Source of the DNA: Saccostrea cucullata
Lineage: Eukaryota
Direction of reading: 5' to 3'
NCBI RefSeq assembly: GCF_032062105.1
Contig: NW_026935665.1
Location: 1 to 64,000 of the forward strand
Length of the DNA: 64,000 nucleotides
How positions within the stretch are numbered: position 1 is the first letter of the stretch; each line of letters opens with the position of its first letter. The position numbers were made by a program, and so were the translations under genes. Under the pieces are notes generated by a model. It ran no database searches. It was not told where the DNA came from and was given only the letters and a program-made list of their open reading frames with translations. Below, piece after piece: positions 26,885 to 51,699 of the stretch.

Positions 26885-27546
26885 CACACATAAATTTCTG
26901 AGAAAAAATCGAAAAAACTATTACAGTATGTAAAAAATAAACTTAGTAAAATTCCCTCTGCATTATCGTAGATTTAACCTTTTTAGATATAAAAGTACTA
27001 GTACTAGATTTTGAAATTGTTCTTGAAAAGCATTGATATTGATATTTATTTATTATTTTATCGTGTCTATTTAAAACCTGCTTTATAAGATATTGTGCTA
27101 TTTTGTCAATTAAAACCATCAGTAATCATTATATTTAAGACATTATGCCAAGAATTTCGTTTTGTTGATTACATATTTAACAATTACTAACTTTGAGGGT
27201 AACTTAAAAATGTTTGAACATTTCGATATAAAATATCAGCCTATCAAAATTATCCATGAAAAAATAACTTAATCCCTACTACTGTGTACTAGTACTTCCC
27301 CAGCATTTATATAAGGTCAGTACTTTCTTTTATGCATTACTCTGCAACCGTTACTTTATTCAATTGGCCCTTTCAATAGGTACAACCAGTGTGAAGTTAT
27401 TCCTTCAAGTAACCGAGCCTTCTGTTGACTACTTACTGGATGACTGCAGTTTACAACAGCTTCCTCATATTCAACACTGGCATTCTGATGCTGTCAGTAG
27501 AATAAGTAACATCAGGAAGACGTCTGTGTCGCTCAGGTATCAATAA
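23928..27546 (+). CDS. Diverged xylanase paralogue with only signal peptide + CBM (exons 1-4); ~198 aa if exon 4 reads through to TAA
   Basis: Exons 23928-24118, 25364-25509, 25823-25915 and 27380-27536 have the same lengths and phases as exons 1-4 of the full gene, with no stops. Read-through of the exon-4 donor gives ..VSLRYQ* (TAA 27544-27546). No GH10 exons were seen downstream in the window. Confidence 0.75.
26838..26882. repeat. (TA)n microsatellite
   Basis: Perfect TA run. Confidence 0.95.
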
Positions 27547-28129
27547 AATAGTAAAAAAGAATGGAATTGATAACCATTTTAAAAAGGTAATGACTAGAAG
27601 ATATGGCGTAAAAGAAGTCGAACATGAGTTATCGTTCATATAATGAGTTATCGTTCATAAGATGCGTAATACGTCATCACTAGAGACCTATTCACTCGTA
27701 CATGGAATATTCCACATGCATTAAAATAAACAGAAATAAAATAAAAATTCTTTAATAATATATAATACATATTCGGTTGGTAATTTATTTCTTATTTCAT
27801 CTGTAATTTACAATGGGGTTATTATATATAAATCCGTATGCTGGAAAATGGAAATGTCAGTAAATATAAACAATTTATCAATATAAATTATGGATAAATT
27901 ATAGACTAGCGTGGATTGATTTTAATGAAAAATAAAAGGAGTTGAGGTATAGTGCTTGATATATTTTCCTTTTATATATTTATTTGTATTTCGGTTAATG
28001 CAGTTTGGTACTGTGTATTGTGAATGGAGAATGCGCGTGGGGGGGGGGGTATTACCTACTGGAGACAGGCATCTATCGTTAAATGTGGTCCTGTAAGAAA
28101 CGAAAACCAAACGTGTTTAAATGCTGCAA

Positions 28130-28793
28130 TAAGTTCCTCGCTCCAATTTTTCACTCATGGGAACACTAACAATTGCCGTTGGAAAGCTGCTCGACACTCT
28201 GGGTCACTGAACAGTGAAGGACCTTTTTCGTGCCAGCACCAACAGCGACAGGGAGGGGTGGAGCGGTTGTTTGTCAGAGTTAAGGAGCCCACAACCACAC
28301 TAAAATTATTGAATTATTAAATCTTATGCTTATATTGTAAAGAAAAGGGGGCCCTGGTCCTCTGCACAGTGAGGGATCTTTTTCGTGCCAGCGACAAGGG
28401 ACCTCGGTTTATACGGTCTCATTGGAGGACCGGTCTCCACGTCCTTCAGATGGATTCAAACCTGCAACACAATGATTATCTCCTAAATCAGCGACTTGAA
28501 AGCAGACTTTCTTATTACTGTTTCACACGGCGACGCAGATTTCAGTGGAGAATCCATGAATCTTGAAAGGGGAAAAGGGGGGGGGATGCTGTTGTTTATC
28601 AGAGTTAAGAGTTTGTCAGTATTAAAACATACAGAAATATAATAAATATTTTTGATAATATTTATTCGATTGGTAAATTACATTTTATTAAAATTAAAAA
28701 TTATTGAATTATTAAATCATATGTATATATTCGACAGAAAAAGGGGACCGGGGTGGGGGGGGGGGGCACTAACCTCTAAACTAATCCGCCAGT
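28130..28793. mobile_element. Cluster of decayed SINE fragments and a G-rich MITE remnant
   Basis: SINE core pieces at ~28130-28250 and ~28370-28470; CAGTGGAGAATCCA ... TAATCCGCCAGTG TIR-like ends at ~28544-28793. Confidence 0.45.
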
Positions 28794-29779
28794 GTAATTG
28801 AATGACTATTATACTGAGGTTGTGAGATAGAAATAATTATTTTCTTATTCTAATTAGAAACTTATACCTATACAACAACCACTAATAAGAAATCTGGTAT
28901 TGTTTCACAGGAATATCCAGCTTAGCGATAAGACTTAATTTCTCACAAAACTCAAGATTTTTCCCCCACGAGGCATATCCTAACGCAATAGAGCAAGGGA
29001 TACGTAAATCTACAAATCCTACATTTCTCGCTATTCGGCAGTTACTACTTTTCTGGGTCTGGTATACCTGATATTTCACACTAGATAATTCGAGTGAATT
29101 TTTTTTCTCATGTGATCCAAAGTACAAATATATGACATTGTGCTTACTTTATTTATATTTCTTCACTTAGGGCAGTGATGTTTGTTTAATACTTGTTGTA
29201 AAATATGATTGAAATATAAAAAAAAAAAAATAATTAAACTAATTATAAAGTCCAAATTACTAGATTTCATTTCTTATCTAATGACCATGTATTGAAGGGC
29301 AGCCCCGCGAGAATTCCGAAGCATTTAGGTTATAATGTATAGCGACCATTTTACGTACCTAATAAATGAATGGTCTGATAGTTTAAATCTTGATAAAATT
29401 TTGAAGATGGTATCAAATAATGCTTCACTGAGAATTGTACAAAACTTTGATTTTTGTCCAATTAATTGCACCTTGAATTTTACATAAATTGAAGTTCTAT
29501 GGGCTGCACATGTTTTTATTTAAGATATTGTAAAAAAGTTATTTGATCTGCAAACAAATATCTTTGTAAATATTTGAATAAACTATATCTTTATCAAGTT
29601 AAGATACTTTGAGAAATAATAATTTTTCTTCTTTTCATCAATTGCAGATAACTCTTCATAAACCTTTAAGGTGGAATGTCACACCGACTTTTTATTTTAA
29701 AGATCTTTGAGTCATCCTTTTTAAACAATTGTTTCAGCACTGAAAGGCTGATATTAGCTCTTGATTATTTATATTAATT

Positions 29780-30552
29780 TTTTGCAGTTTGACCCATTTG
29801 TCATGAAAATTATAAACTTTTACTTTGGCCATATCTTTTGAACAGTAGATGCCAAGACATTTATACTTCACATATGTAATCTTTTTTGAATGACCTTTCA
29901 TTTGATACCAACAGCCTTGATCCTTTGACCTTGAACTTGTAGATTTCCGTACTTGTGAAGAAACTTTAACCTTGGCTATAACTTTTGAACGGTAGGGAAT
30001 AGGACTTTCATACTTCAAATACTTCAAATACTTGATCTTTGTGAGAAGTTAATTCATTGGATACCGAGAATTTTGATCCTTTGACCTTTAAGATTGACCT
30101 ACTTTAAAAAAGCAAACATTGACCATAACTTTTTAAGTATTATGGCTAGTGCTTTCATACTTAACATATTTAATCCTTGTGAGAAGTTACTTCATTGGAT
30201 ACCAAGAACATTGACCCTTTGACCTTGACGTTGGAGTTTGACCTTCTTTTTAATAAATAACCTAGGTCATAACTTCTGACCGGTTAGGGTTAGGGCTTTT
30301 ATACTCTATATAAGAATTCTATGTGGCAAGACCTTTCATTTTGATACCAATTACATTGACATTTTTGCCTTGACCTTAGAGATTTTTGTACTTATAAAAA
30401 AAACCTTTAACATTTTCACAAATTTCACAATTGTTTTCCGTTGAGAATACCTTATTTTTGGTAATTATTAATTAAATTTGCATTTAAAAAAAGCTTAATA
30501 TTTGCTATGTTGCCATATGGGGGCATCAGTGCTACACAAACACATCTTGTTT
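29780..30552 (-). mobile_element. Partial Helentron-type element with TTGACCTT repeats
   Basis: Same internal repeat family as 14885-16743; terminus GGGGGCATCAGTGCTACACAAACACATCTTGTTT. Confidence 0.7.
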
Positions 30553-30639
30553 ATTAGGTATTCATATGATGCATTCATTTACAGCAAATTATTTTAAAAG
30601 AAAGCATCTAATTTGGATGTAAATAATCATAATCCTACA

Positions 30640-32340
30640 TGTCATTCATTGCTGATGATTTATTTTAGATTGAAATTATTACCATGATCTTAAAAGGGTT
30701 TTCCTACCTACCTGTAGCTTGTACCAGCTAATAATTCGACATCGAACTCGGCAACTCCTTCCCTTTTACGGAAATTAAAAAGATCAGTTTAACCTGAAGA
30801 TATGTCCCCGATCTCAGAGCTTTCTATCACCTACCTGTACCTTGTACCAGATAAGAATACGACAAAATATTCGTCTTATTCCAACCTGTCTGTCATAGAT
30901 TCTAATTTATTTTATACTGAAATTATTACCCTGATCTTACTTGGCAACTCCTTACCTGTTATGGAGATTCAAAAGATAGGTTTAACATGAAGATATGTCC
31001 CTGATCTTCGAGCTTCTTCTCACCTACCTGTACCTTGTATCAGATAAGAATACGGCCAAAATATTGGTCATATTCCTACGTGTCTTTCATAGATGCTGAT
31101 TAATTTTATACTGAATTTCTTACCCTGATCTTACTAGGCAACTCCTCACCTTTTATGGACATTTAAAGGATAGGTTAAACATGAAGATATGTCCCTGATC
31201 TCAGAGCTTTCTCTCACCTACCTGTACCTTGTACCAGATTAGAATACGACAAAATATTCGTCTTATTCCAACCTGTCTTTCATAGATTCTGATTTACTTT
31301 ATACAGAAATTATTACCCTGGTCTTACTCGGCAACTCCTTACCTGTTATGGAGATTCAAAAGATAGGTTTTACATGAAGATATGTCCCTGATCTCAGAGC
31401 TTTCTCTCACCTACCTGTACCTTGTACCAGATAAGAATACGGCCAAAATATTCGTCTTATTCCAACCTGTCTTCCATAGATTCTGATTTATTTTATACAG
31501 AAATTATTACCCTGGTCTTACCCGGCAACTCCTTACCTGTTATGGAGATACAAATGATCGATTTAACATGTAGATATTCCCCTGATCTCAGAGCTTTCTC
31601 TCACCTACTTGTACCTTGTACTAGATAAGAATACGAAAAAATATTCGTCATATTCCTACCTGTCTTTCATAGATACTGATTAATTTTATACTGAATTTCT
31701 TACCCTGATCTTACTAGGCAACTCCTCACCTTTTATGGACATTTAAAGGATAGGTTAAACATGAAGATATGTCCCTGATCTCAGAGCTTTCTCTCACCTA
31801 CCTGTACCTTGTACCAGATAAGAATACGACAAAATATTCGTCTTATTCCAACCTGTCTTTCATAGATTCTGATTTACTTTATACAGAAATTATTACCCTG
31901 GTCTTACTCGGCAACTCCTAACCTGTTATGGAGATTCAAAAGATAGGTTTAACATGAAGATATGTCCTTGATCTCAGAGCTTTCTCTCACCTACCTGTAC
32001 CCTGTACCAGATTTGAATACATTAAAATATTTGTCATAATCCTACCTATCATTCATGGATGCTGATTTATTTTATACTGAATTTCTTACCCTGATCTTAC
32101 TAGGCAACTCCTTACCTGTTATGGAGATTCAAAACATAGGTTTAACCTGAAGATATGTCCCTGATCTCAAAGCTTTCTTTCACCTACCTGTACCTTGTAC
32201 CAGATAAGAATACGACAATATATTCGCTATATCCCTTCCTGTGTTTCATAGATGTTGATTTATTTTATATCATAATTACCCTTATGTTGGAGGGTTCCTC
32301 TAACCTACCTGTATCTTGTACTAGCTTGTAATCCAGGACG
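30640..32340 (+). repeat. 193-bp satellite array 1 (~8 monomers plus degenerate edges)
   Basis: GATCTCAGAGCTTTCTCTCACCTACCTGTACCTTGTACCAG recurs every 193 bp. Confidence 0.95.
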
Positions 32341-35300
32341 AAATTAGAACCAGGTTTCAGTTCACTTACCTCTAATCAATTTTAGTATTATTACCACCCT
32401 ACCCTTTAGACACATTAGAATATAATACACTTATAATAGATATCAGAATTTACTTCTCACACCTATAAAAGGCCACATACCATATTCTGGTACTTTAACT
32501 AACCTACCTGTCAAAAAATACTTGATAAGAACACTACTACCTGAAACATGTACCATACTTTAGTTCAACTTCCTTCAACAAGTATAAGATATATACAGTA
32601 TACAATCAAAATCTAGTCCTTGAACCATCAGTCCTCTTATATATACCTAAGTTAAACACACCTAACTCTTACAGGTACCAGATATGTATACAATGTACTT
32701 CTAGTATTTTAAGCCTCCTAACTCCGACAGGTGTCTGATTTTAAAATACCTACCTGTAAGAGGTGATACTATTTCTACCTCTAACTAGTACTTGGCTATT
32801 GTCAACTGAACTACAGCAAGAAAGATGGGAATATTATTGAAAATATTTCCAATAGGTACCAAAACATTGTCAAAATGTATTTGTCAAGTGCCTTTTATCA
32901 CATGAAATAGCCTGCGTCTTGGATATTGGCCTGAACAGCAAGTCGGTAGAGCACTTGTATTAAGTGATGCAAGGGTTCAGAGTTAGATTCCTAGACCAGC
33001 CATAAATTTTTTCCTTACCATTACATCATGTAAATCTCGAGTCTATGGAGAGAACAATCATGGACATTTATGTCTGCTATTCATTCAAATTCAATGAATA
33101 TAGTATATTTTAAATCAAATCTCTAATCTATAATGAAATACTCAATTCTAATTACATATACTCTCCTCCAATGACTTCAACAAATTTATGACACTTATGT
33201 GTAACTCTTTTCGAAAGTAATTTATGGCATAGTTTTGATAAGTTCAAATCAACTGAATTTAAGAAATGTTTTTGCACTGGTTTTGCATGCATGTTAATAT
33301 ATATCAAGATAGGACTTTCCCATAAATTTTTCAATTTAGATGAATCGATTTTCATAAGTATTTGAAACAATATCCTTTTTCATTTCCTACTCCGCATTTA
33401 AATATAAGCCACAGTGTAAAGTCAATTAAACTATAGAACAGTTCAAAATCACTGAAAAATTGAATTGGAACATAAATAACAAATATCAGGTAAATCTACA
33501 TGCACTTGATGGTGTATTTTTATTTTTTATCTCAGATATGCCACATGGTTCATTTCACATTTTTCTGCATCTATTTCAGACTTACTTCCATTTCCTCCTA
33601 CGCCTTATCAAGGCCATTGATCACAGATACTTATCAATCATTAATTTAGGTAAATAGCATGCTAAAGTTCAATTACTATATACTATATATATTATATTTA
33701 TAATCCCTTTAATGCTGTGTATCCAACAATGCAAATGTAAATTTTTTTGTTTATGTTTTGTATCAATATTGATAAAAATATTCAATACATGTATGTTCTA
33801 ATATTAAGTAGATCATAATTCAGGTCATTGTTACATCTTATCAGTTTCAGAACATTACAAATTTAAATACAGGTTGAAGTAAATGCTTTTTTCAGAAATG
33901 TTAAATCATATACCCTATTAGCTATAATTGTAAAATCAATATTATTAATTTTATGTTCCTTAGTTCTCCTGCCAAATGACTGAGCTTTTTTTTGTTAAAA
34001 GCAGGCAAAAACAAATAACATCAAGTAGAAGTAAAATATGTCATTTATAATTGTAAATGACGGAAAGGTAAACACAGTTAATGAAATTGGGGTCATTAAA
34101 AGGAGGACGCAAATATAGAGTATTACACATGTTAGTCAAAATATTAAACAATCTGACCCCCAGAACCATAATGACATTGTAACATGATGTACATAGGCAA
34201 AAGGGGGGTCAACCAGACTAGAATAAGAATTCAAACCCTGTAATCTTTCACAAATTACAATATACATGTATTTCAAGTTGACCCCCTTATAAACATCATA
34301 AGTTCCGAAGACATATACAAAATGCTCAAAACTGCTGCCTGCCATCAAAAAAGGTGGGAAAACAAAATAACAAACAGCCAATAACAAAGCAATCAGATAG
34401 GCATTAAATTGAACACAAAAAATGCTTCCCTCACCGCTGAGGAAAAAATATATATAAAAAGTAACACTGATTAATGTTTAAAAATCAAAAGGAAAGCTGC
34501 AGACAGAAGCAAATTTGCGAGGTACACAAAATGAATGGCGGACTCAATCTCAGTAATCTAATACATGGAATTGCTATTTATTACAATGTACAAAAATTTA
34601 CTTTTTCAGTTAGAACGTCCGCTGGAGAATGAATATTAAAAATCACTTTATCCCATTCGAACACTATCATAAAAAGATGGTTAAAACATAACAAAAATGT
34701 CAACCTGAAAGAAATAACAAGCATTGGTGGCAGATGGGGTGGATGGTGGGTTAAAAAAAATTCAGCAGTTCAATAAACCATGCTTTCTCTTTTGGTAAAT
34801 GGATCAATAATGATCACGTGATGGATAAGAATGACAATATGTACAATACAGATACTGTTATATTATAACATTATTAAACAAGAACATGTCACGTAAATGA
34901 AATTATTTGCAATGATTACTTTTTTTCGCTTTACAGAAAATTAACTCCATTTTAAGAAACATCAAGTTGATATGCATTTCAGATTCTATAAATAGTAACT
35001 CAAGTCTATATGCTGTTATATACTTAATCATGTGACCAACTTTAAGCCAATCAGAGGGATTGGAATATTATGATTAAAATAATATGTTCTAATATATAAC
35101 AAGGCACTTAAAGTAAATCATATACAAATTGCAATTTTACAAAACCTTCATGATAAAAAATTGAAGTGCCAATATTTAATTATATTGAAATGGTTTATTT
35201 AAATATGAAAAGACTGCAAAGTAGTTTTTGTTTGCATGTGCTCCTTGGATTTAAAAATCCCTAATAACATTTCTTATGTAGTTAGCTACTACATTAGGCA

Positions 35301-35360
35301 AAAATAAAGAGCCATGGACACATACACTAATACACATCCACACCAAAAACAAAAAAAGGT

Positions 35361-35712
35361 TTATGAACTCTTCGGGTAAAGGCGGCACTCAGCTTCAGAT
35401 GAGGACAAATTCCATAACAGTGCCGCGAGCAAAATCTCCCCTTCAACAAACAAAACATCCCTGAAATACTGCAGTCCTTCATTCATATTTTGGCCCATCC
35501 TGTAAGACAGAAAAATAAGATGATGCAATTATATTCATTTGCTTGTGAATTGATGTAGTTGACCCAAATGACAACCTTCATTCAGAATTCAATTATTACT
35601 GCTTTATGAACTTGAATTTAAAAACTACTGAAAATAATATTATTATTTTTATGGTGTCTTCTTTTTTTTATGCGGGAATATATGCCATCAGATTTGAATT
35701 TGGATTACATGT

Positions 35713-35771
<59 letters not shown>

Positions 35772-35855
35772 TATTTGGCTGTGTATTCTTTTTAGCGCTT
35801 TTGGCGGAAAGGAACTTCCGCTAATATATATAAATAAGAACATTGAGAAATGCGC

Positions 35856-35941
<86 letters not shown>

Positions 35942-38900
35942 TCTCTTCCTGACACAAAATCAATGAAAATTAACCTCCCACAAAAAGTGGTAACTTCTTA
36001 ACTAGAGTTCATTTTTAAAATTTGCCACTTCTGTCTAGAAAATGAACAGAAACTGCCGGTGGACCAACCAATAGACAGCAGCAAAGCAATATGGCCTCCC
36101 TTCTTCAATAGGGAGGGGAGGGGAATAAATTAATGAATAAAATTTATACATAACTTTTGGATGTTTGTATATACATCATATTTCGAACATTGTATAATAT
36201 ACAGAAAAACTTGTTCTTTCAAAATGCAACCATTGCAAATAAATTTTCAGGATACAAAATTCCCTATTTGGGAACATGTTTATCAATTAAATTTATTAAA
36301 AGGATAATAACGGTGGTAGTGCATTAAGCAAGATATTGATGTACTTCAAAAGAATTTTTTCTGCTTCTTTCACTGAAAGTGAGGGATATCAACTTTGCAA
36401 GTTTTTTTTCTGTCAGTCTTTCAGTTTGTATTTCTGTCTGTCTGTAATACTTTTATTTTTGTTCAAATTATCTCTTTTATTCCTATGGCCTGAGGTAGAC
36501 CCCTGCAGATTGCAAGTTCAGAAAGTCAAAGGTCATGGTTGTAAACTATTACATTCAACTTTCCTTTGCAGTGATATCCCAACAAGCTTTTGATTGTTTT
36601 CATTAATTTTTATACATCATTAATGCCTATGGCCCTGCCTGCCCTTCTCAAAGTTCCCCTCTTGACTCCAGTCCCCTAGATCTGTGCATCCTCTCCTTTT
36701 TCCCTGAAGTTGGGGACACTGATTCTCTAATTTAGCTTGATATCTTATTTTTTTCTATATACAGTCAATCTTCGTTATCTAGAACACTGATACCTCTATT
36801 ACCATGGAGATGCAATGTGATTAGGATACCTCAAAAGCTTATTCCTTCATTATTCTACTTTGGATATCTCTAACCCTCAGATGTCTAAATTTTATTTCTC
36901 AATCCCATCAGGTTCCAAATGAAGAATTTCAATAGAGATACAAGTTATTTATTCTGGTGAAGTTTGTACTATTAAAAGTTACTGATGCCACACAACATAC
37001 AGCAGACAGAAATTAGGGACTCATTGAGCTTTGTTCCGAAAAGATTATGAGAACCTTAGGCCTAATTGCAGGAAAAAGTCTCTGATATAGGTTATGCATT
37101 ATGTAATCAAGGATGACAAAATATTTTTCTCTCTTTCTCTCTTACGAAATTGAACAATTTAAAAACAATTCAAATTTAAAAGGAAGAATAAAGGTAGCAA
37201 GTAAACACATACTCATCTTCGAGTGTAGCCATGAGAATTCTGTTGGTGTCATCCTTCATGGACAAATAGTGACCATGGCAGTAACCTATTCTTCTGAAGT
37301 TGGAAATAAGATACATGGAAACATCAATATGAGGAACTTATGTCAATTACCATTGTGATAAAAGAAATATGTATATAAAAGAGGCCCAAGGGCCTTAACT
37401 CTCACCATATAATGTAATGATCTATAGATCAAAATAAAAAAACTGATAAATGAAATTTACAATTTTTGTTTCCCTTTACCCATAGATGATATATGTCGAA
37501 ATTGGTCGAACTGTTTCAAAGGATATTAAGCTGAAAATTTTTCAAATTTTTCAAATTTAACATCAATGCTCCATTGCATGCACAACATGTGGAGAAAACA
37601 GATAGAAAGCAATAGTGGCGAAAATTTACTATCTGGGAAAAATGCATGAAAAAAATGAACTTACATGATTGATTTAGGCTTGAACACCCCAAACTCTCCC
37701 AAAATCAAAGCATTCAATTCTGGTAAACCCTATAGATTGAATAAAATATTTGGTTTGAAATTATAATTTTATCAATATATAAAAGCACATACATATTTGA
37801 TTTCACTAATGACTAATTAATACTAATTCCTTGCTTTTTCATTTTAGGATAGTTAGTTGTATTAAAATCTGATAATCTCTTTTGATACATATGAACAAAT
37901 GATACCTTTCCAAAAAATTTTGCTCTCTCCTCAATTCCCTTCTCCGAATTTCTGAGTTCCAAGGCTTCATTGAGGGGCTGTCTTTGAACCCATCTGATAT
38001 GCCTCCAGTGTGGTTCATAGCAGCTTTAATTAATTTTATAGAACGTCAAATAAAAAAAATCATCAAATGGGCAACTTTAATTAGAGATATTGTATTGTAG
38101 CTGATCTACCAAATTAAAATATAATAATTCCACCAGCAAAATTCTACAGTGCCTAGTACTTTCTCCATTAAACTTTAAAGTTAAAAAGGTTAAATGTAGA
38201 TAGTTTAAAGAATAACCCATCCTTTTGGCATTCATAATCTTTGTACAAGTTTCTCTGTAAAAGAATTATGGAACTGCCTTTCATTCTACACCATAATTTT
38301 CTACCAGTGTACCACCAAGAGATACAGATAAATATTGCCAACTCAGGGTAAATCATCAAAAATCAATCAATTTACCATCAATATTTAACTTCTGTTAGTA
38401 ATTTTCATTTAAGACATATGTACATTCAAATGCCTTAAGTTCCAACTTTTGATAATTATGTATTAGAGTAATACACTCATGACATGACTGATTGATAAAC
38501 TGAATGGTATTTAACATCCCATATGAGTATTTCTGTAATGGGGCATTAATTATGACACCTCCTAAGGTCAAAACAATATTTGTAGAAGTATGACCTTCAA
38601 ATGTCACCTGAACAAAATTGCACAGACAAATGGATAACTATTCAGGCAAGTGATTCTTTAATATATATCCCCAAAACTATGTCGGGTTTAATCAATTAAA
38701 ACATTTGCATCAGGTATATAAAACTATCAGGAATCCTTACTTTGAATTGCCTTCTTTTAAACAAACCACCTCTTTCAGTCTTTCCTTAATGTGATCTTCA
38801 AACTGTAAAGCCATAAATTTTAATTTCATATTAAGATGGTACATGTACAGTTCAAACCAGTTGCTCTAAATTTAGTTTCTTTGAGATTCATGGAAGTTAC

Positions 38901-39009
38901 GTACCAAAACTGAAATCTTTTTGCCTAATATGCTGGCATTTCCTTTTACCAGAACAGTCCCTGGCCGCAACTGGCACACGGCATTTACAAGCTTCTTGCA
39001 TTGTGCAGT
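35361..39009 (-). CDS. Six-exon 3' part of an unknown gene (189 aa), weakly similar to the C-terminal helical domain of PWWP3A/MUM1
   Basis: Exons 39009-38905, 38802-38741, 38023-37906, 37729-37665, 37293-37213 and 35499-35361. All junctions are GT-AG, phases 0,2,0,2,2 are compatible, and the frame is open to TAA: [112 protein letters not shown]. No start codon was found. The family call rests on recalled motif similarity only. Confidence 0.75.
35715..35938. repeat. Two (TA)n microsatellites (35715-35765, 35859-35938)
   Basis: Perfect TA runs; source of the spurious IYIYIY ORFs. Confidence 0.95.
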
Positions 39010-39057
39010 CTGCAAATAAAACCAGCATAAAAGAATATTGCATACTTAAAGAATAAC

Positions 39058-39688
39058 TACAGAAGCCTGTTTAGGACCTATCAAATAATATATTTGAATT
39101 CGATATGACGAATTGTTGATATTGTTAAAACGAATTGAATTCGTTATAACAATTTTTTGGAATTCATTATAACGAATGTAATTTGTTGTAACAGATTTGA
39201 TAAATTCGTTAAAGCGAATTCAAAAATTTGTTAAAACAGATTAAATTTGTGAAAACGAATTCTAAAATTTGTAATAACAAATTAAATTTGTTTAAACAGA
39301 TTTAATTTTTGTTATAATGAAATGAAGTAGTTTCATAAAATTTGGACTATTAGGTCCTATGGAAAAAAATTTGTGAATTTGTTATAAAAAATTCAAGAAA
39401 CTTGATATTACAAATTTAATTTGTTATAATGAATTCAAAAATTGATATAACAAATTTAATTGTTTTAACAAATTTTAGAATCCGTCTGAACAAAATGAAC
39501 TCGCTACAAAAATTTTTTTGAATCGTTATAACAAAAATCAACAGATTTGTTATGACAGATTAAATTCATTATATCTAATTCAAAGAAATTTTTACAACGT
39601 ATCAAATTCGTTGTAACAAATTTGACAATTCGTTATTTTGGATTCAAAAATATGTTAATACACAAGTAGGTCCTAAATGGCTTCCTTA
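39058..39688. mobile_element. MITE with internal short degenerate repeats
   Basis: TIR GAAGCCTGTTTAGGACCTA / TAGGTCCTAAATGGCTTCC; interior is variants of AATTCGTTATAACAAATT. Confidence 0.75.
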
Positions 39689-39743
39689 AATAACGGTCTA
39701 CTTTTTTGAATTTTATGATGTAATCAATCAATTGGAATTTATG

Positions 39744-42700
39744 CGTATTCTTATCTGGTACAAGGTACAGGTAGGTGAGAGGAAGCTCTGAGATCAGGGA
39801 CATATCTCCATGTTAAACCAATCGTTTAAATATCCATAAAAGGTAAGGAGCTGCCGAGTAAGACCAGGGTAATAATTTCAGTATAAAATAAATCAGAATC
39901 TATGAAAGACAGGTTGGTATAAGACGAATATTTTGTCGTATTCTTATCTGATACAAGGTACAGGTAGGTGAGAAGAAGCTCTAAGATCAGGGACATATCT
40001 TCAGGTTAAACCTATCGTTTAAATGTCCATAAAAGGTGAGGAGTTGCCTAGTAAGATCAGGGTAAGAATTTCAGTATAAAATTAATCAGCATCTATGAAA
40101 CACAGGAAGGAATATAGCGAATATTTTGTCGTATTCTCATCTGGTACAAGGTACAAGTAGGTGAGAGAAAGCTCTGAGATCAGGGGAATATCTACATGTT
40201 AAACCGATCATTTGATTCTCCATAACAGGTAAGGAGTTGCCGGGTAAGACCAGGGTAATAATTTCTAAATAAAATAAATAAGAATCTATGGAAGACAGGT
40301 TGGAATAAGAGGAATATTTTGGCCGTATTCTTATCTAGTACAAGACACAGGTAGGTGAGAGAAAGCTCTGAGATCAGGGACATATCCACATGTAAAACCT
40401 ATCTTATGAATCTCCATAACTGGTAAGGAGTTGCCAAGTAAGACCAGGGTAATAATTTTAGTATAAAATAAATCAGAATCTATGAAAGACAGGTTGGAAT
40501 AAGACGAATATTTTGTCGGTTTCATAACTGGTACAAGGTACAGGTAGGTGAGAGAAAGCTCTGAGATCAGGGACATATCTTCATGTAAAACCTATCTTTT
40601 TAATATCCATAGAAGGTGAGGAGTTGCCTAGTAAGATCAGGGTAAGAAATTGAGTATAAAATTAATCAGTATCTATGAAAGACAGGTAGGAATATAACGA
40701 ATATTTTGGCCGTATTCTTATCTAGTACAAGGTACAGGTAGGTGAGAGAAAGCTCTGAGATCAGGGACATATCTTCATGTAAAACCTATCTTTTGAATCT
40801 CCAAAACAGGTAAGGAGTTGCCGGGTAAGACCAGGGTAATAATTTCTGTATAAAATAAATCAGAAACTATGGAAGACAGGTTGGAATAAGAGGAATATTT
40901 TGGCCGTATTCTTATCTGGTACAAGGTACAGGTAGGTGAGAGAAAGCTCTGAGATCAGGGACATATCTTTATGTTTAACCTATCCTTTAAATGTCCATAA
41001 AAGGTGAGGAGTTGCCTAGTAAGATCAGGGTAAGAAATTCAGTATAAAATTAATCAGTATCTATGAAAGACAGGTAGGAATATGACGAATATTTTGTCGT
41101 ATTCTTATCTAGTACAAGGTACAAGTAGGTGAGAGAAAGCTCTGAGATCAGGGGAATATCTACATGTTAAATCGATCATTTGTATCTCCAAAACAGGTAA
41201 GGAGTTGCCTAGTAAGGTCAGGGTAAGAATTTCAGTATAAAATAAATCAGAATCTATGACAGACAGGTTGGAATAAGACGAATATTTTGTTGTATTCTTA
41301 TCTGGTATAAGGTACAGGTAGGTGAGAGGAAGCTCTGAGATAGGGGACGTATCTCCATGTTAAACCTATCGTTTAAATATCCATAAAAGGTAAGGAGTTG
41401 CCGAGTAAGACCAGGGTAATAATTTCAGTACAAAATAAATCAGAATCTATGAAAGACAGGTTGGAATAAGACGAATATTTTGTCGTATTCTAATCTGGTA
41501 CAAGGTACAGGTAGGTGAGAGAAAGCTCTGAGATCAGGGACATATCATCATGTTTAACCTATCCTTTAAATGTCTATAAAAGGTGAGGAGTTGCCTAGTA
41601 AGATCAGGGTAAGAATTTCAGTATAAAATAAATCAGAATCTATGAAAGACAGGTTGGAATAAGACGAATATTTTGTCGTATTCTTATCTGGTACAAGGTA
41701 CAGGTAGATGAGAGGAAGCTCTGAGATCGGGGACATATCTCCTTGTTAAACCTATCGTTTAAATATCCATAAAAGGTAAGGAGTTGCCGAGTAAGACCAG
41801 GGTAATAATTTCAGTATAAAATAAATCAGAATCTAAGAAAGACAGGTTGGAATAAGACGAATATTTTGTCGTATTCTAATCTGGTACAGGGTACAGGTAG
41901 GTGAGAGAAAGCTCTGAGATCAGGGACATATCTTCATGTTTAACCTATCCTTTAAATGTCCATAAAAGGTGAGGAGTTGCCTAGTAAGATCAGGGTATGA
42001 ATTTCAGTATAAAATTAATCAGCATCTATGAAACACAGGAAGGAATATAGCGAATATTTTGTCGTATTCTTATCTGGTACAAGGTACAGGTAGGTGAGAG
42101 AAAGCTCTGAGATCAGGGGAATCTCTACATGTTAAACCGATCATTTGATTCTCCATAACAGGTAAGGAGTTGCCGGGTAAGACCAGGGTAATAATTTCTA
42201 AATAAAATAAATAAGAATCTATGGAAGACAGGTTGGAATAAGAGGAATATTTTGGCCGTATTCTTATCTAGTACAAGGCACAGGTAGGTGAGAGAAAGCT
42301 CTGAGATCAGGGACATATCCACATGTAAAACCTATCTTATGAATCTCCATAACTGGTAAAGAGTTGCCGAGTAAGACCAGGGTAATAATTTTAGTATAAA
42401 ATAAATCAGAATCTATGAAAGACAGGTTGGAATAAGACGAATATTTTGTCGTATTCTAATCTGGTACAAGGTACAGGTAGGTGAGAGAAAGCTCCGAGAT
42501 CAGGGACATATCCACATGTAAAACCTATCTTATGAATCTCCATAACTGGTAAAGAGTTGCCGAGTAAGACCAGGGTAATAATTTCAGTACAAAATAAATC
42601 AGAATCTATGAAAGACAGGTTGGAATAAGACGAATATTTTGTCGTATTCTAATCTGGTACAAGGTACAGGTAGGTGAGAGAAAGCTCTGAGATCAGGGAC

Positions 42701-43971
42701 ATATCATCATGTTTAACCTATCCTTTAAATGTCTATAAAAGGTGAGGAGTTGCCTAGTAAGATCAGGGTAAGAATTTCAGTATAAAATAAATCAGAATCT
42801 ATGAAAGACAGGTTGGAATAAGACGAATATTTTGTCGTATTCTTATCTGGTACAAGGTACAGGTAGATGAGAGGAAGCTCTGAGATCAGGGACATATCTT
42901 CTTGTTAAACCTATCGTTTAAATATCCATAAAAGGTAAGGAGTTGCCGAGTAAGACCAGGGTAATAATTTCAGTATAAAATAAATCAGAATCTAAGAAAG
43001 ACAGGTTGGAATAAGACGAATATTTTGTCGTATTCTAATCTGGTACAGGGTACAGGTAGGTGAGAGAAAGCTCTGAGATCAGGGGCATACCTTCATGTTT
43101 AACCTATCCTTTAAATGTCCATAAAAGGTGAGGAGTTGCCTAGTAAGATCAGGGTATGAATTTCAGTATAAAATTAATCAGCATCTATGAAACACAGGAA
43201 GGAATATAGCGAATATTTTGTCGTATTCTTATCTGGTACAAGGTACAGGTAGGTGAGAGAAAGCTCTGAGATCAGGGGAATATCTACATGTTAAACCGAT
43301 CATTTGATTCTCCATAACAGGTAAGGAGTTGCCGGGTAAGACCAGGGTAATAATTTCTAAATAAAATAAATAAGAATCTATGGAAGACAGGTTGGAATAA
43401 GAGGAATATTTTGGCCGTATTCTTATCTAGTACAAGGCACAGGTAGGTGAGAGAAAGCTCTGAGATCAGGGACATATCCACATGTAAAACCTATCTTATG
43501 AATCTCCATAACTGGTAAAGAGTTGCCGAGTAAGACCAGGGTAATAATTTTAGTATAAAATAAATCAGAATCTATGAAAGACAGGTTGGAATAAGACGAA
43601 TATTTTGTCGGTTTCATAACTGGTACAAGGTACAGGTAGGTGAGAGAAAGCTCTGAGATCAGGGACATATCTTCATGTAAAACCTATCTTTTTAATATCC
43701 ATAGAAGGTGAGGAGTTGCCTAGTAAGATCAGGGTAAGAAATTGAGTATAAAATTAATCAGTATCTATGAAAGACAGGTAGGAATATAACGAATATTTTG
43801 GCCGTATTCTTATCTAGTACAAGGTACAGGTAGGTGAGAGAAAGCTCTGAGATCAGGGACATATCTTCATGTAAAACCTATCTTTTGAATCTCCAAAACA
43901 GGTAAGGAGTTGCCGGGTAAGACCAGGGTAATAATTTCTGTATAAAATAAATCAGAAACTATGGAAGACAG
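39744..43971 (-). repeat. 193-bp satellite array 2 (~22 monomers), inverted relative to array 1
   Basis: Reverse complement of the array-1 monomer, period 193 (e.g. 39783 -> 39976), sharp edges on both sides. Confidence 0.97.
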
Positions 43972-44439
43972 ATTAAAATATGCCAAGTAATGATTCATAT
44001 CTTGTTTTCTTACATTTTGGGGAATTTTCGTTTTCTAAATCATTTATTTGAGAAATTTTGGAGTATATAAGACGCACATGTGTAAAGATTTTATCACCAA
44101 ATAAAACCTAACCACATATACTAATGAATGTTTGTATATATTCACTAAAGGGATCGAGTTCATTTGAAATTAAAAGTCCAATTAAATACAAATTGAGTAT
44201 TAACTGCTCAGTTCCTTGTAATTGTACTAATGAAATATTGAGATAACTAACTCTTGTTCAAGCTAAAGTTCATTTAAATAACACATATCGGAGCTGACCC
44301 ATAAGCAATTCAACATGAAAATAATGGTCGAACAATTACCGTCAAATCACATATTTCCTAGGGGTCAATTTTTTGTTGTTTGAGAAAAATATATTGCTTC
44401 TTGGAGAATTTATTTCGTGTATGAAGAACTGATCAACTC

Positions 44440-47430
44440 AGAACCAGATATGTCAGACTCAAATGTATTTTATATTTTGAATTCACTGAGATATATCGAG
44501 TCGAAATATTACAGAGGCAGTTATAGTTTATTGATTATATTATCTAACTAAGGAGTCATTAGGAGTTTACAACAATAACGCAAGGAAGCTCTATCTCATC
44601 ATATAATTTTGTGCATATTTAAACAATTTCATTCATTTTCATTTCATAATCCTCGCATATTTCTTCTATTATTCAATATGTAATTTTAATTACAATTCAC
44701 TTTGAATCTTAAACAGCATAAACAAGACTCTTCCGTGTTCTGTGTTTAGAACTTTCTAGAAAATTTTATTGGAAGGCTGTGCATCTGTGAATCAGAAAAA
44801 AAATCACTTTGCTTTAACAGAGACACAGTTTTTTTCTTTCATTTGAAAATTACTGGAAATAATAAATTCATTTACGTATAATCCGACCTACATAATCCTA
44901 GCATATTTATTCTATTATTCATTGTGTAATATATTGTAATTTCTTTCTTATCTCTACTTCTGAGGGCGGATCTCTCTAACAGCATAAACTACCCTGCAAC
45001 TCTTCAGTGTTCTGTGTTTAGAACTTTCTGGGAAATTTTATTGAAAGGCTGTACATCTGTGGATCAGATTACGTGTTGATTTTAAGAAAGAACATGCTAG
45101 ATATATTTCTAGAGATGCAATGAAAGCAGGAATTTCAGAAATAACAAGAAATTAATTTTGGTAACACCTTTGGAAAAGCAACAATTTGAAAATTGGAAGT
45201 CAGACAATATTCTTATTCGTATTTGTATGTGATATTTCGAATGGAAAAAGTAAATTTATCATCAGATAGAATTCAACAATATTATGAATAATAAATCAGT
45301 TATATCTGCCTTTCAAAAGCATACGACAAGCGATTCTAGAAAAAGAAAAGATAGGCTAAGGATCCATTACGTCCACTATTTTGGGTCCTCTTTTAGAATA
45401 ATACAACAATTTATCAATTAAAACCTGTTGCCATACCTTTTTAAAAAATAGTAATGGCTTTAGTTATTTGATACACAGTGGGCTCAGAAATGTCAGAAAT
45501 CTAAATTTAATCTAATCTAAATTTCCGATTGTTCTCATTTTTATGCAAATTTTGTTTAAGAAAACAAAAAACACAAGCTTGTCTATCTGCAAAATTTATA
45601 TGCATGTATCAAACGTATATCATGTACCTATATCAGATGCATTTTAGATATAAAAAATTTAGAATCTTTTCGAAATGAAAACTCAAATTTTACGAAATTC
45701 CGACAAAATTGAAAAATGTTGTTAAAACGTCCCAGTTCTGCGCCCTCTTGTAATCTCTTTTTAAGATTATAATCAAAATGTCTCTGTTTAAGATTAGAAT
45801 CAAAATAAAGTCTAAGTTTTAAAAATATTCATTATTTTTGTGATTGGCTACAGAATATCAAAATTGTAACTATGTTCTCTTAGGAAATGAATTAGTTGAT
45901 AAAACAAAACAAATATTCAATAAGTATTTGTGTTTACCAGAAAAAAAAACCAACTACATATAAGACTATGAACATATGTTTAATAAATCAGATATTAAAC
46001 TTCTAAAGTCAAAAAAATCAATTTAATTAAATAAAATTGTCAGTATCATAATTTATCCTCAAAGGATATTCCTTAGTTTATAAAAAAAGTCATTTGTAAT
46101 CTTTTGATAGCTTTCAGTTATATTATGATTGATAAATTAATTATTTCTGACATACAAGAGTATTAAAAAAGCAATACTGAATAAAGACAAGGTAGGCAAA
46201 GATCGCATTCTGCCCCTATTTTGCATTTTCTATTAGAATAATACAACATTTAGAAAAAAAAAACCTGTTGTAGCCCCTAACCTAAATTATTATAGGTTTT
46301 AAGTTATGAGATACACAGAGGGCACAGAAGAGTCGAACAAAAGTAAGAATGTTCTCATTTTTATGCAGTTTCTTTTGGATTGTACATCAAATTTTGTCTA
46401 CGGAGGTAAAGAACACAAGTTTTGTCAATTGCTAAATTGACATACATATATCATACACTTATGTTGGATATATCTTAGATATAGAAATGCAGACGTTTTT
46501 CGTAAATGAAAACTACTTCAAATTTTACTTACTTTCAACAGAATTGAGAAAAGTTCGGTAAATGTCCCAATCCCTGGCCTTCCTGTGGCCATTGTTTAAT
46601 CTTTAAATCAGAATTAGAGCTTAATTTTAATAAGAATCATATTAAGTTCTTGACTACAAAATATAACAAATTTCACTGTTTTGGCTTTCACATAATATAA
46701 GGGGTCTAATTCGGCCGTTTCCATATCTTGTCCGTAAAAGAGAACTTTTGTAAAAAAAAAAAATAGTTTATAATCAAGAAATTCAACGCAAGATCAAAGT
46801 CTATTTGTTGACAAAATGTATGGTATATGTATGCTAACAAAATCAGTAATTTAACTTCTAAGGACGAAAAGAAAAAAAAATAAAGTAAACAAATAAAGTT
46901 GTCAATATAATCAATTTTTCATAATGAGAGTAGACGGACATTTTCAAATGTTGTATTACATTAATAAATAAAATAGTAATAGAACACGGGATCTCATTTG
47001 TATTATAATTAAACTTAATGTTTTAAGACTTGTGACGAAAATATATCCCTACTCTGTAGTCATTTAAATACATTTGAAACATTCATGAGAAACACACTCT
47101 ATATTCTTGATTGGAAGGGAAAGGATTTGTTATATGATAGCTTCATGTCCTTTAATTTTAGAACACTTAATGTTTCTATGAAAGTCTGCTTCCCCCGGGA
47201 ATAAATAAATGCCAAGCAAAGTTTGGATGAAATCGGAAACTATATCAGCAATTAAATAAATTTCAAAAATATTACAGTTACTGTTTAATAAAAGCTTTTT
47301 TCATGTTGACAGTTTTAATATTTCAGAATTTTTTTGTGTTTGCTTACTTGGTCAATGGTTTGTTAACTTTATAAGAACCCAATTTTGGCAATAAGATTGT
47401 TTACAAGATCATCCACGTAACATTAGATTA
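44440..47430 (+). repeat. Old non-coding duplication; partner at ~59750-62050
   Basis: Collinear shared blocks, e.g. GAGTCGAAATATTACAGAGGCAG (44498/59808) and CTTCTGAGGGCGGATCTCTCTAACAGCATAAACTACC (44957/60185). Confidence 0.85.
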
Positions 47431-48642
47431 CATTTACTAAAAAATAAATAAAATAAGGGTTTTGATATGTTGATTAATTGTATACTATTTAACGTTCCTC
47501 TCCACAATATTTCACTGATATGGATACGTCACGATTGCCTCTCGTTAACGAAGCGAACTCTCTACCATTAGGCTACCGTGACCGGCCAGAACATTTTATT
47601 AATGTTGAAGAAAAGCTTTTTAAAAACATTTCAAAATAAACTTTTAAAAATATTTTAATTCTATTTTCAAGAAGCTTATGGTAATTTTTTTTATGGAGCA
47701 TTTTCTGAATTGTTTTTGAAACATATTAAAACTGTTTCCAATGTTATGTTAGTTTACAAATATTAACGATTTTTGCATGTCATTTTCTTTTTTTAAAAAA
47801 TGCTAGGGAAAACACCTAGATGAAGCTAAGGAGCAATTTACAATTTGATATAGTAACAGGAAACTTATTCGTTTCCACATATAAAACTAAATTCGGTAAG
47901 TTACAAAGAAAAATGCATTTGTAAAGGTTAACAATTATTTATTTAATGAAAAGATAAATCACAGTGAACAATATTAAATGTCTAGGGGACGATAGATACC
48001 TACTCGCAGTTATGTCTGTCTAGTTATGGCCGTTGACAACGCCACGGTGGTCAGCATCAGATGTGAAGGTGTTGTCCATAACGGGCTGACATACGCGCAA
48101 AGTCGGAGACAATTGCAAACCCGACGTGAAATGTAAAAATACTATAAGTATTATAATAACAACAATACACAACAGTTAAATAAATATGTGACCAGATATA
48201 ATAGCTAACACTGAACTAATGTAATTTAAAGATTTATAACTATAATGATAAGTCGATATAGGGCTGGATTCTGTTTTTCTTTATTTTATGGAGATAGAGA
48301 TTATTAAAGATGAAGTAAATGATAGAATCAAACAAGCTGAATTAATCCCTTAGATATCAATAACACTTTAAGGACAGATGATACAAACAAACAATCATCC
48401 GGGTTGGTATATATATATTTTTTTTTACCTAATTTCATTGCAATAAATTCTAGAATATAAAGAAATTGTAAACCGTCGGTGATGTTTAAAATTCTACCCT
48501 TCTGAAACCATCCTTATAATTCTATTCAGATATTTTTCACTTCAATTTCCATTTTGTGAAACTTTGAATAGAAATTATATTATAAACTACGCGGCGAAAC
48601 TTATTTTTTTTATTCATTAAAACATGACTTAAGTCGTTATTT

Positions 48643-49981
48643 ACAAGACTTTGAACAAAAGTTTGTTTGTATCATTTGTCATTAAAGATACATAGACAAA
48701 GAAGTATATAGGGTAAGGGCCATTTAAGGCCCCCACCCAGAAAATGTTTATCTTTACTATGGAGAGGGATAAGGCAAGGATGTTACTAAAAATATATAAT
48801 TTAATTTGACCAGGCGTACCGTTGCCATGGAAACCGTCGTCAAAATCATACACCTTCAGACCTCTAAATCTGGCATCTAATGCCATCTATTGTCATTTAA
48901 CCAATCTTTAATTTTGATACCAACTATATTGTCTTAAGTTAATGATAGTATGTATCCTTTTGGATATGTCAAAGTGACTATTTTACTAAGAAAATATATT
49001 TTAAATTTAATAGGGATTCCGTTACCATGGAAACTGTATTCAAACTTATTCCATTATATCTGAAATTATGGCTTTATTGACAATTAAGAGATCTGTAATT
49101 TTGGTAGCATCTATAAAATCTTCCATAAATATTTATATTTTGGATACCCTAAGATGATTTTGTACTTAGAATTATATTAAATTGATAGCAAGTCCGTTGC
49201 CATAGCAACCATTTTGTACAAACTTATTCCCTTAGATCAGTTTTTGTTGTTGTTTACCTAACAAAAGCAATCGTTTTTTTATACAATTTTTTTCCGATTT
49301 TTTTTTTTGTTGTTAAACTTTATATTTTTAGGAATAAAGAAAACAAGATAAGTTTGTTAAACTCTATGCGCCCGGTGGCAACAAAGTTCGAAAAAGCTAT
49401 TTTTAGCATATAGGTTACAGTCAAGGTCACAAGATCTTTGACCTTGGTGTCATTTGAAAGCACTTTACTAGTGAAGTATGCATACCAAATGTAAAGTCTA
49501 GTGAAGTATGCATACCAAATATAAAGTCTATCTCCTATGGTTCAAAAGTTAGAGCAAAAGTTCGAAAAAAAAACACTATTTTTAGCATAAAGGTCACAGT
49601 CAAGGTCACAAGTTCATTGACCTTGGTGTCAGTTGAAAGTGTTTAGTTAGTGGAGTATGCATTCTAGTGAAGCTTAAAGATGACAACAGACAGACAAACA
49701 GAAAAACAGACAGTCAAACATATAAACAGACAGACAGGACAAAAACAATATACGCCCCAAATAAATTCGGGCGCATAAATATTTAACATTTTAACAAAAA
49801 CTTGGTATTGAGGGACGTGGTTGTTGACAGGAATCAAATTGTCTCTCTTACAATTAGTCTGCCCGTTAATGCAGTCAATTCCGATAATAACTTTGTAACT
49901 TAGAAAAATTAGAAGTTTATATTCTAGTACATGTATACATATGATTTATGATTTGATAAAATCTCTAGTTCAAAGTCTTGT
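48643..49981. mobile_element. Decayed TIR element with X-box-like repeats and a nested Helentron-type element (49342-49779)
   Basis: 14-bp inverted ends ACAAGACTTTGAAC / GTTCAAAGTCTTGT; GTTRCCATRGMAAC at 48821, 49021 and 49196; the nested element has an AACAAG start, CAAGGTCA repeats, (ACAG)n and a 3' hairpin. Confidence 0.6.
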
Positions 49982-50261
49982 CAAAAATTGTTATACCATA
50001 ATCATTTATAAAAATCAAATCACTGGCAGATGAAAATATGAAATGCTAAGTATTAATTGGATTTTATCAATTATCGTTTTACAGAGGAATTCATGAAAAA
50101 AAAATACATCTGTATCATTCAGCATAATTTTGCAATATGAACATTAAAATTTTGCATTGCATGATCATATTTGAAGTGCAGAAATAACTAGTGGAACGAC
50201 TTATTGACTTATATTTTTTTATATTTATGAATTTTTAATTTATGATTCTGTAGCCAAAGTG

Positions 50262-50468
50262 TCGCCCACGTGGCGCAGTAGTTAAAGCATCTTTCGTTTA
50301 AACTGAGTTCCCGTATGTAGTAGGAGATGGCACGAAAAAGATCTCTCGCTGGTCAATTGCCTTAAGTGCCGGGTATAGGTTAGAATCTGTTGCCCTTCAT
50401 CTGCAAGTGGTGGTATCTCAATATAAAGAAAAATTCTCAACAGGGACATTGAAAACAATCTATCAATC
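50262..50468 (+). mobile_element. Decayed tRNA-headed SINE
   Basis: A-box-like GTGGCGCAGTAG, body homologous to the 4839-5105 SINE, CAAT-type tail. Other decayed SINE or tRNA-like heads at ~32925-33005 (+), ~47470-47590 (-) and ~50690-50855 (-). Confidence 0.55.
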
Positions 50469-51699
50469 ATTTTTTAATTTTCTCTTCATTGAAATCGATG
50501 GCATTTTCCTAATAACATGTACAAAAATGTTAGTATCAGAAAGGGAAGATCGTGTAAATACTGCCTACAATACATTGTTAAAAAATTCAAAAGGCATAAT
50601 GATATAAGGTTTTAAAAATTAAACATAAAAATGTAACTGGAATTCATGTAACTGGCCATTGAGGAGATACACAAATTCAATGAACAGGTTTGTTTGTTTG
50701 ATTTTTTTATCTACCCTTTCGAGAACTTTTTTTTTAATATTTGAAATCTTATGTCTCGATTCCGAAGTGAGATTTGAACCCTGTACTTAAGGATATTCTG
50801 CGCTATACTCTGCGACTCATGGGCAAATGATCTAACCACTGCGCCACACAGGTGCACCAATAGACCTGGCGAAATATCGGAATCTTGTTTTGATATCATA
50901 GAGGGGGGAGGGTGCAATCAGTAAAATATACTGAGTAATCAATATCTTTCTAGTATTTTGCCTCTTCGATAAAAAATTAATTTCAACTGGTACAGTGTAC
51001 TTTTTTGAGATTTTTCCGAGAAGAAATACAACTACACGGGTAAGAACCTTGACTGTATTACAAACTACGAAGGTTTAAGCAATGACACATGCCACTTTCT
51101 CAACACTAAAAAAAAAATGTATTTTAAAACTTCCTATCTGTACAGTCCGGAAAAGAAATCACAATGTTTTAACTATTTAATTAAAATTAAAGGGAAATAA
51201 ATATTATAATATTAAAAAAGAAATAAAATAGTTGAGGTTAAAAATACTATATCATGTTGAGTGTTACTGCAGTAATCAGTAAAAAAAAATGTTTAGACAA
51301 AGGGTATATGACCTTATGTATATGTACGTGTATAATAGGTCCTTCGTAACTAAGTATAAACCTATTTAATTTAATAATTCACACTATGATAGTTTTTATA
51401 ATAACACATTAACCCTAAAAATTCAGAAATTAAATTAATGAATTTTTAGAATTAAAAATGTGATGCATTTTTATTGTTTTGTTTTTACTATATAAATAAA
51501 ATGTTGATTCAAAACTTTCTTACTATTTATTTTTATCTAGGCCTATTCATTATTTTTTTTGTACATATAAATAAGTTAATTATGCAATAAAATTAAATTA
51601 TAGAAATACTAATATTATTTCTATTTGAGTATTTGTACTCAACATTTATAGAAAAAAAATGTTTTAGTTGGTTTTATTGAAATTACTAATGCCCCGAAC

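Follow-up and report, generated by a model that had tools for sequence, protein, structure and literature searches.

We analyzed a 64,000-nucleotide window of the Saccostrea cucullata genome (the whole stretch of DNA considered here; assembly GCF_032062105.1, contig NW_026935665.1, positions 1 to 64,000) in which two arrays of a 193-bp satellite lie in inverted orientation around a spliced gene of six exons. We found that this gene is, by its homology, the 3′ remnant of the transposase gene of a Mutator-like element (MULE) and not a host chromatin gene carried as cargo. The region as a whole is probably an internally deleted, immobile copy, lacking its ends, of a foldback-type MULE with the 193-bp satellite in its arms; we infer that the two arrays belong to this element.

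The six exons lie on the minus strand at 38905-39009 (exon 1), 38741-38802 (exon 2), 37906-38023 (exon 3), 37665-37729 (exon 4), 37213-37293 (exon 5) and 35361-35499 (exon 6, which includes the stop codon). In keeping with the spliced gene that a first-pass annotation of the window had proposed, the reading frame continues from exon to exon and each junction has AG/GT; the GT-AG introns separate 570 nt of coding sequence, equal to 189 amino acids and the stop. The start codon is absent, and exon 1 is an internal exon with an AG acceptor and no ATG. The exons correspond one by one to the Saccostrea cucullata RefSeq protein XP_062581778.1, whose model begins at an in-frame ATG just upstream of exon 2, at 38814. 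When the spliced product was compared to longer proteins, it showed 72% identity to P0052 of Magallana gigas (986 aa; residues 799-984, with exon 1 matching from residue 799 of this transposase) and 70% identity to P0008 of Ostrea edulis (1327 aa; residues 1142-1325). Both proteins score above curated cut-offs for ALS2CR8, for the ZSWIM1-3 RNase H-like/MULE domain and for SWIM (PF10551, PF21056, PF04434), P0008 has Ulp1 (Peptidase C48) as well, and their D-D-E region carries the motifs LLDATY, MTDFD, CDFH and TTNGLE. By descent, the gene belongs to the MULE superfamily, and this homology to transposase C-termini largely refutes the chromatin-protein cargo gene of the first-pass annotation. The 189-aa product itself matches no Pfam family. 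The DDE catalytic domain of an autonomous MULE is not encoded in the 64-kb window: the 3625 peptides of the window hold no match to a profile of the upstream part of the transposase (best E 1.3), whereas all six exons were recovered with a control profile, and tblastn with 12 full-length proteins returned only the six exons below E 0.1. A link to a transposase, which the annotation had suggested looking for, does exist; the transposase core is absent from the window.

Related gene models are found at several Saccostrea, Ostrea and Mytilus loci, so the single-copy gene that had been held out as an argument against a mobile unit is not what we observe. An exhaustive protein search gave 24 matches, with 9 looked-up representatives from Saccostrea and Mytilus, and when cluster members are included, S. 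cucullata has 5 loci, S. echinata and M. californianus have 4 each and O. edulis has 2. Among 17 short relatives that were scanned, 5 have pieces of ALS2CR8, MULE or C48 ahead of the C-terminal domain shared with the window gene, 10 have no Pfam domain, and 2 (P0033 and P0037, with FG-GAP and TPR) are chance matches that we rejected as relatives. In P0047, P0035 and probably P0003, the transposase N-terminus is joined directly to the C-terminal domain; the N-terminus joins in P0047 and P0003 reach 13.4 bits as compared to a best score of 7.4 in 200 shuffles. The joined gene models show what appears to be the pattern of internal-deletion derivatives, and annotation may have produced some of the joins artefactually. 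Gene models of oysters and mussels that are now called 'uncharacterized' could thereby be re-labelled as MULE deletion derivatives. A search with P0008 found 11 long relatives, including bivalves, a brachiopod, a sea urchin and a frog, and two of the 11 are from S. cucullata. Ulp1 and PHD domains stand behind the transposase in P0008, P0054, P0056-58 and P0061; the PHD-type score is weak in P0008 (zf-HC5HC2H, E 0.094) and stands at E 0.0011 in P0056 and E 1.6e-5 in P0061 (both PHD), and there is none in the window. A protein-alignment search of JGI metagenome contigs gave 42 pattern matches, 0 of them confirmed.

The part of the transposase that the window gene keeps is an unnamed C-terminal domain, to which this analysis draws attention. 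An AlphaFold2 model of P0004 (26 sequences) is mostly helical, with a mean predicted local distance difference test score (pLDDT) of 63.5. With this domain model, Foldseek gave 0 matches at E ≤ 0.001 and VIA-align a best Z of 3.9, a PDB sequence search gave a best E of 0.28, and the ESM Atlas had no usable match; this failure to match known folds shows nothing about novelty. A likeness of the domain to the C-terminus of PWWP3A/MUM1 was suspected, and when this was tested only sub-threshold Pfam scores were obtained: PWP3A-B_C scores weakly in 2 of the 26 aligned relatives (best E 0.11), no PWP3A-B_C match was found for P0001 or P0004, and there was no PWWP domain match. The last 50 residues of two Mytilus MULE-Ulp1-PHD proteins, P0056 and P0057, are weakly PWP3A-B_C-like (E 0.012 and 0.023), and through these tails the C-terminal domain of PWWP3A/MUM1 may be linked to transposons. 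A profile of the window gene's domain missed the C-termini in 9 more remote members of the family (best E 0.15), so that its link to their PWP3A-B_C-like tails is only putative. The recurrent retention of the domain may merely reflect its position beside the downstream end.

Array 1 (30746-32269, plus strand) has 7.9 copies of a 193-bp period and array 2 (39744-43971, minus strand) has 21.9 copies, each with 87% matches in Tandem Repeats Finder (TRF). BLAST aligns the two arrays, the same satellite, in opposite orientation, as first noted; the best alignment is 91.8% over 1535 bp, and in both the monomers point the same way when followed inward from the outer edge. The two arrays have the form of the long inverted tandem-repeat arms, unequal in copy number, of foldback elements; array 1 would be the arm downstream of the gene and array 2 a remnant of the upstream arm, with its sharp inner edge as the putative deletion junction. 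To compare monomers, we used 28 whole units (7 from array 1 and 21 from array 2) in 194 alignment columns, and the mean difference is about 21 columns whether the monomers are both from array 1, both from array 2 or one from each. The closest mirrored pair (31524-31716 and 41209-41017) differs at 2 of the 194 columns, and the next best partner at 12. In 100-bp windows along the mirrored register, 5 of 13 are at 97-99% identity and 8 are at 67-90%, and three consecutive windows at 99% make up a mirrored tract at 31524-31823. The common monomer order is a 300-500 bp patch, not a property of the whole array: the mirrored order that had been described between 31520-31760 and ~40970-41200 holds for this patch and not for the rest of the arrays. 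Array 2 also contains internal duplications of 6 monomers (1159 bp) and 16 monomers (3092 bp), with exact stretches up to 443 bp. The monomer motif had 0 matches in JGI metagenome contigs.

The edges of the two arrays differ. Array 1 fades into degenerate flanks and array 2 is sharp-edged, in agreement with the first-pass annotation save for about 30 bp of weak monomer likeness at the outer edge of array 2, to 44001 (E 3.2). The degenerate outer flank of array 1 (30627-30745, plus strand) holds partial, shortened monomer pieces with ACCTACCTGT (nhmmer, 30627-30692 at E 2.4e-9 and 30699-30741 at E 8.8e-6). The inner flank of array 1 (32278-33300, plus strand), which would be the inner arm domain, holds a degenerate monomer piece to 32337 and three ACCTACCTGT motifs and is moderately repeated. 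Outside the arrays, ACCTACCTGT occurs only at 30706, 32303, 32502 and 32748, so that degenerate units with this motif stand at both ends of array 1 and not at array 2; 3 copies are observed in 32280-32800, and at least one copy appeared in just 96 of 20000 shuffles of that stretch. Foldback elements have non-repetitive outer and inner arm domains on both sides, and here we found such domains only beside array 1; therefore we class the region as a likely broken foldback-like copy, not as a complete element.

To gauge abundance, contigs from 4 of 24 sequencing runs were placed on 32103-35690 at 80% likeness; their summed depth is not a copy number and is read in orders of magnitude only. Summed depth is 19,571 in run X1 and 96,310 in run X2 for the monomer, 30-147 (X1) and 40-288 (X2) for the inner flank at 32343-33300, and 7-9 (X1) and 6-10 (X2) for the exon 6 region. 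Among near-identical single contigs in X1, depth rises from 7.4 at exon 6 to 13 at 35045-35270, 22 at 33545-33821 and 35 at the inner flank, where the contig is 704 bp long with 3 differing letters. This rise from the gene toward the arm fits a family in which ends outnumber interiors, and the excess of monomers agrees with satellite arrays that stand free, having either escaped from arms or been independent of them. Under a second organism label, the inner flank is present in X7, differing at 8 positions of 644 bp, and exon 6 is present in X2.

From this anatomy, we infer a history for the whole region. A MULE with composite arms would have inserted, the two arrays being its arms. One deletion, from inside array 2 (39744) to an intron 735 bp above exon 1, would then have removed the inner arm domain, the promoter and the exons for the DDE core, SWIM, Ulp1 and PHD. 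Later insertions would have entered at 39062-39684 and 33800-35100, array 2 would have grown by unequal exchange (the 6- and 16-monomer duplications), and sequence conversion may have acted between the arms. The outer termini would have been lost or obscured, leaving a copy that could not be excised even in trans; these outer ends may have been deleted, or the left end may have been interrupted by insertion of a 147-bp-repeat element that ends at ~30552, with the first trace of the monomer 75 bp to its right. Either the monomer or its ACCTACCTGT core would be a putative transposase-binding subterminal repeat that was also amplified into larger arrays elsewhere. We regard the monomers as a putative binding array, and the copy without termini as presumably immobile, because the ends of Muta1 are bound by its transposase and its terminal motif and subterminal repeats affect transposition (PMC5499845).

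Several results weigh against reading the region as a broken foldback-type MULE. Local alignment with shuffles of 27000-30745 against 43972-53000 found no common outer flank, terminal motif or partner end, with nothing above chance save one poly-A match (score 39 as compared to a shuffle maximum of 34), and the inner flank of array 1 was not found at array 2 (score 23, where shuffles reached 29). For a MULE, a target site duplication (TSD) of 8-11 bp would be expected; the one candidate, a 9-bp word repeated directly at 30544 and at 43999, was rejected as being at chance level, since 816 of 2000 random flank pairs have a common 9-mer; its left copy coincides with the end of the neighbouring 147-bp-repeat element. 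The boundaries and TSDs that the first-pass annotation had hoped to define came down to this lone 9-mer, with no terminus shared between the outer flanks. Its comparison of a GC-rich motif at 29294 to a Sola2 terminus is not supported either: the motif stands alone, with no other copy at up to 5 mismatches on the two strands, and the linked transposase family is MULE. Monomers of different arrays show no greater likeness than those of one array, the satellite and the gene are known together from a single locus with flanks, and tandem-repeat arms are shown for no full-length relative. The assembly is fragmented, and haplotype duplicates may account for part of the S. cucullata loci. Finally, monomer depth is hundreds-fold above that of the flank, meaning that most monomers are not in arms like those of the window. 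A DNA-transposon-like unit with satellite arms, as originally suggested, is still the best reading, although ends and a TSD were not found and the arrays are assigned to it indirectly.

The same depth excess, more than 2,000-fold when the monomer is compared to exon 6, would be expected if an abundant Saccostrea satellite, with a carrier of its own or as plain arrays, were independent of the gene. The MULE 3′ remnant would then lie between the arrays by chance, and array 2, either inserted later or copied locally from array 1 in inverted orientation, would have cut off the 5′ part of the gene. The arrays have no common flanks, the edges of array 2 are nearly sharp, the region is repeat-dense, similar degenerate units stand at both ends of array 1 (score 42 as compared to shuffles up to 32) like those of a self-contained repeat, and oyster satellites are dispersed genome-wide in short arrays (PMC8268682). 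This account requires that two arrays came to lie in inverted orientation on either side of what is left of a transposase gene, in a layout known from foldback elements, and the gene-to-flank depth gradient and the mirrored 99% tract also speak against it; nor is there a TSD around array 2 alone (the longest common word is 7 bp and offset from the edges). We consider it less probable but a real rival, and give it this much weight because only one copy is readable. A foldback element with a captured host chromatin gene, or a domesticated single-copy host gene, is far less probable and already largely refuted: the intact frame and splice sites and the weak PWP3A-B_C scores of the relatives and of the two Mytilus C-termini speak for it, but two transposases that were annotated independently have the domain as their C-terminus, the gene is multi-copy in four genera-level sets, the start exon is absent, oligo-dT reads reach a depth of only ~1 on exon 6 and leave the splice junctions uncovered (one run, possibly from a different species), and no non-bivalve is among the 9 named representatives. 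Equally hard to credit is an error of assembly, or that the satellites mediated an inversion of the interval at 32.3-39.7 kb. The contig is short (65.6 kb) and unplaced, array 2 contains recent duplications, and inverted repeats can recombine; the arrays are, however, ~11% different, so neither is a read-level mirror of the other, and arrays that are already inverted would stay so after an inversion between them, which explains neither their origin nor the absent exons.

By analogy, the oyster region would work like Rehavkus or Tetris and would descend from a MULE gene; as a likely broken copy, it is not claimed as a Rehavkus member or as complete. In Rehavkus, which is related to MuDR, long inverted termini hold a variable number of monomers, as the putative arms of the oyster region do. 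The Tribolium elements Rehavkus-1_TC and Rehavkus-3_TC and the Rehavkus-like carriers of TfSat06, TfSat15, TfSat23 and TfSat25 have inverted termini with 2-12, 6-8 and up to 50 monomers, sometimes more than 11 kb, and satellite escape from Rehavkus has given an 80.5-kb array (bioRxiv 2024.12.02.626372). The Rehavkus transposase has a PHD finger, and Rehavkus is reported from arthropods and annelids only, with a 9-bp TSD (PMC6446971). PHD is weakly present in relatives of the window gene; in contrast to Rehavkus, the host is a bivalve and no TSD was found. Also unlike Rehavkus, the oyster gene is intron-rich and its relatives have ALS2CR8, SWIM, Ulp1 and the extra C-terminal domain; the likeness is one of architecture. 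Tetris, a foldback element of Drosophila virilis, resembles the region in its three-domain arms, with ~220-bp tandem repeats that are far commoner than the flanking domain and seed satellite arrays; its complete copies have 8-10 bp TSDs and most copies are rearranged (PMC4079207). Tetris has no coding middle, whereas the oyster region has the tail of a spliced transposase gene in its middle, and no ends were found for it. Tm1, a Mutator/Foldback family of the Phantom class with 9-bp TSDs, is alike in being a MULE family with composite terminal inverted repeats (TIRs) of variable repeat number and unequal arms that are ~93% identical, and differs in its 14-bp units, its FLYWCH domain and its nematode hosts (PMC3169594). 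The architecture having been described in these three, the region is not the undescribed system for which the first-pass annotation had named it a candidate.

In Mutator elements of hydra, lancelet, Arabidopsis and melon, Ulp1 and PHD are C-terminal of the transposase (PMC2836005), as in the relatives of the window gene; the window, in contrast, keeps only the domain behind Ulp1/PHD. Oyster Helentron satellites of the Cg170 type likewise form short arrays on mobile elements (PMC11136912, PMC8268682), but these have one central array between conserved boxes, where the oyster region has two inverted arrays around a transposase-gene remnant. Two satellites of C. gigas, CgiSat23 (1295 bp) and CgiSat28 (182 bp), are MuDR-linked. 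Reported TIRs are none, 48 or 296 bp in molluscan MULEs (PMC6446971) and 13-1193 bp in arthropod MULEs (PMC13359780), and the word foldback is absent from the accessible text of a study with 39 curated MULE consensus sequences (PMC10294476). Satellitomes have been published for Crassostrea and Ostrea (PMC8268682, PMC11136912). In the openly searchable literature, we found no description of this MULE family or of the 193-bp satellite; Repbase could hold one. If the arrays are arms, an abundant Saccostrea satellite would have a transposon origin, and the route from transposon ends to satellites that Rehavkus and Tetris exemplify would extend to bivalves, where the accessible literature stresses Helentron carriers. 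A broader scenario, which we consider improbable, is that of an intron-rich bivalve ALS2CR8-MULE-SWIM-Ulp1 clade whose satellite foldback arms seeded a major Saccostrea satellite (thousands of monomers) and whose derivatives in oysters and mussels recurrently keep the helical, distantly PWWP3A/MUM1-like C-terminal module as a trans-acting anti-silencing or repressor protein.

Other repeats lie between and around the arrays. Upstream of exon 1, an AT-rich palindromic element at 39062-39684 (no strand assigned) resembles a MITE (miniature inverted-repeat transposable element), with short inverted ends GAAGCC..TTTAGGACCTA, 21/42-bp internal repeats in both orientations and TTAA at the right end only; it is a second, small foldback-like MITE, separate from the arrays. 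Between the array 1 arm and the gene, high-copy repeat pieces at 33800-35100 (no strand assigned) have depths up to 5,364 (X1) and 11,924 (X2) and many loose ends, are transcribed on both mate strands, and have joints that skip ~990 and 1160 bp in other contigs; they are likely one or more nested insertions. In intron 5, at 35715-35938, an 84-bp piece between (AT)30 and (AT)40 may be left over from an element with TA microsatellites as its target. Copies of the 147-bp tandem-repeat element lie at 14967-15832, 16371-16602 and 29782-30552, and 166-bp repeats at 6016-6325 and 13041-13345; we take both to be of Helentron type. A Ty3/Gypsy-type long terminal repeat retrotransposon at 53092-57725 has a 1284-aa frame (protease, reverse transcriptase, RNase H, integrase) and looks young, its 149-bp flanking direct repeats being 100% identical. 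A tandem duplication of ~6.4 kb at 1-12496 (98% identity) carries an exon for a 265-aa rhodopsin-family G protein-coupled receptor in each copy. The plus-strand exons at 17447-23563 presumably encode a GH10 xylanase-like protein, and a 43-bp tandem repeat of 12 units (19929-20443) begins at an exon end of this gene. An old duplication relates 44440-47453 to 59750-62062 at 70-87% identity, and a repeated short segment in it may be an exon. Short self-complementary hairpins are present at 12883-13038 (94%) and 58221-58414 (87%).

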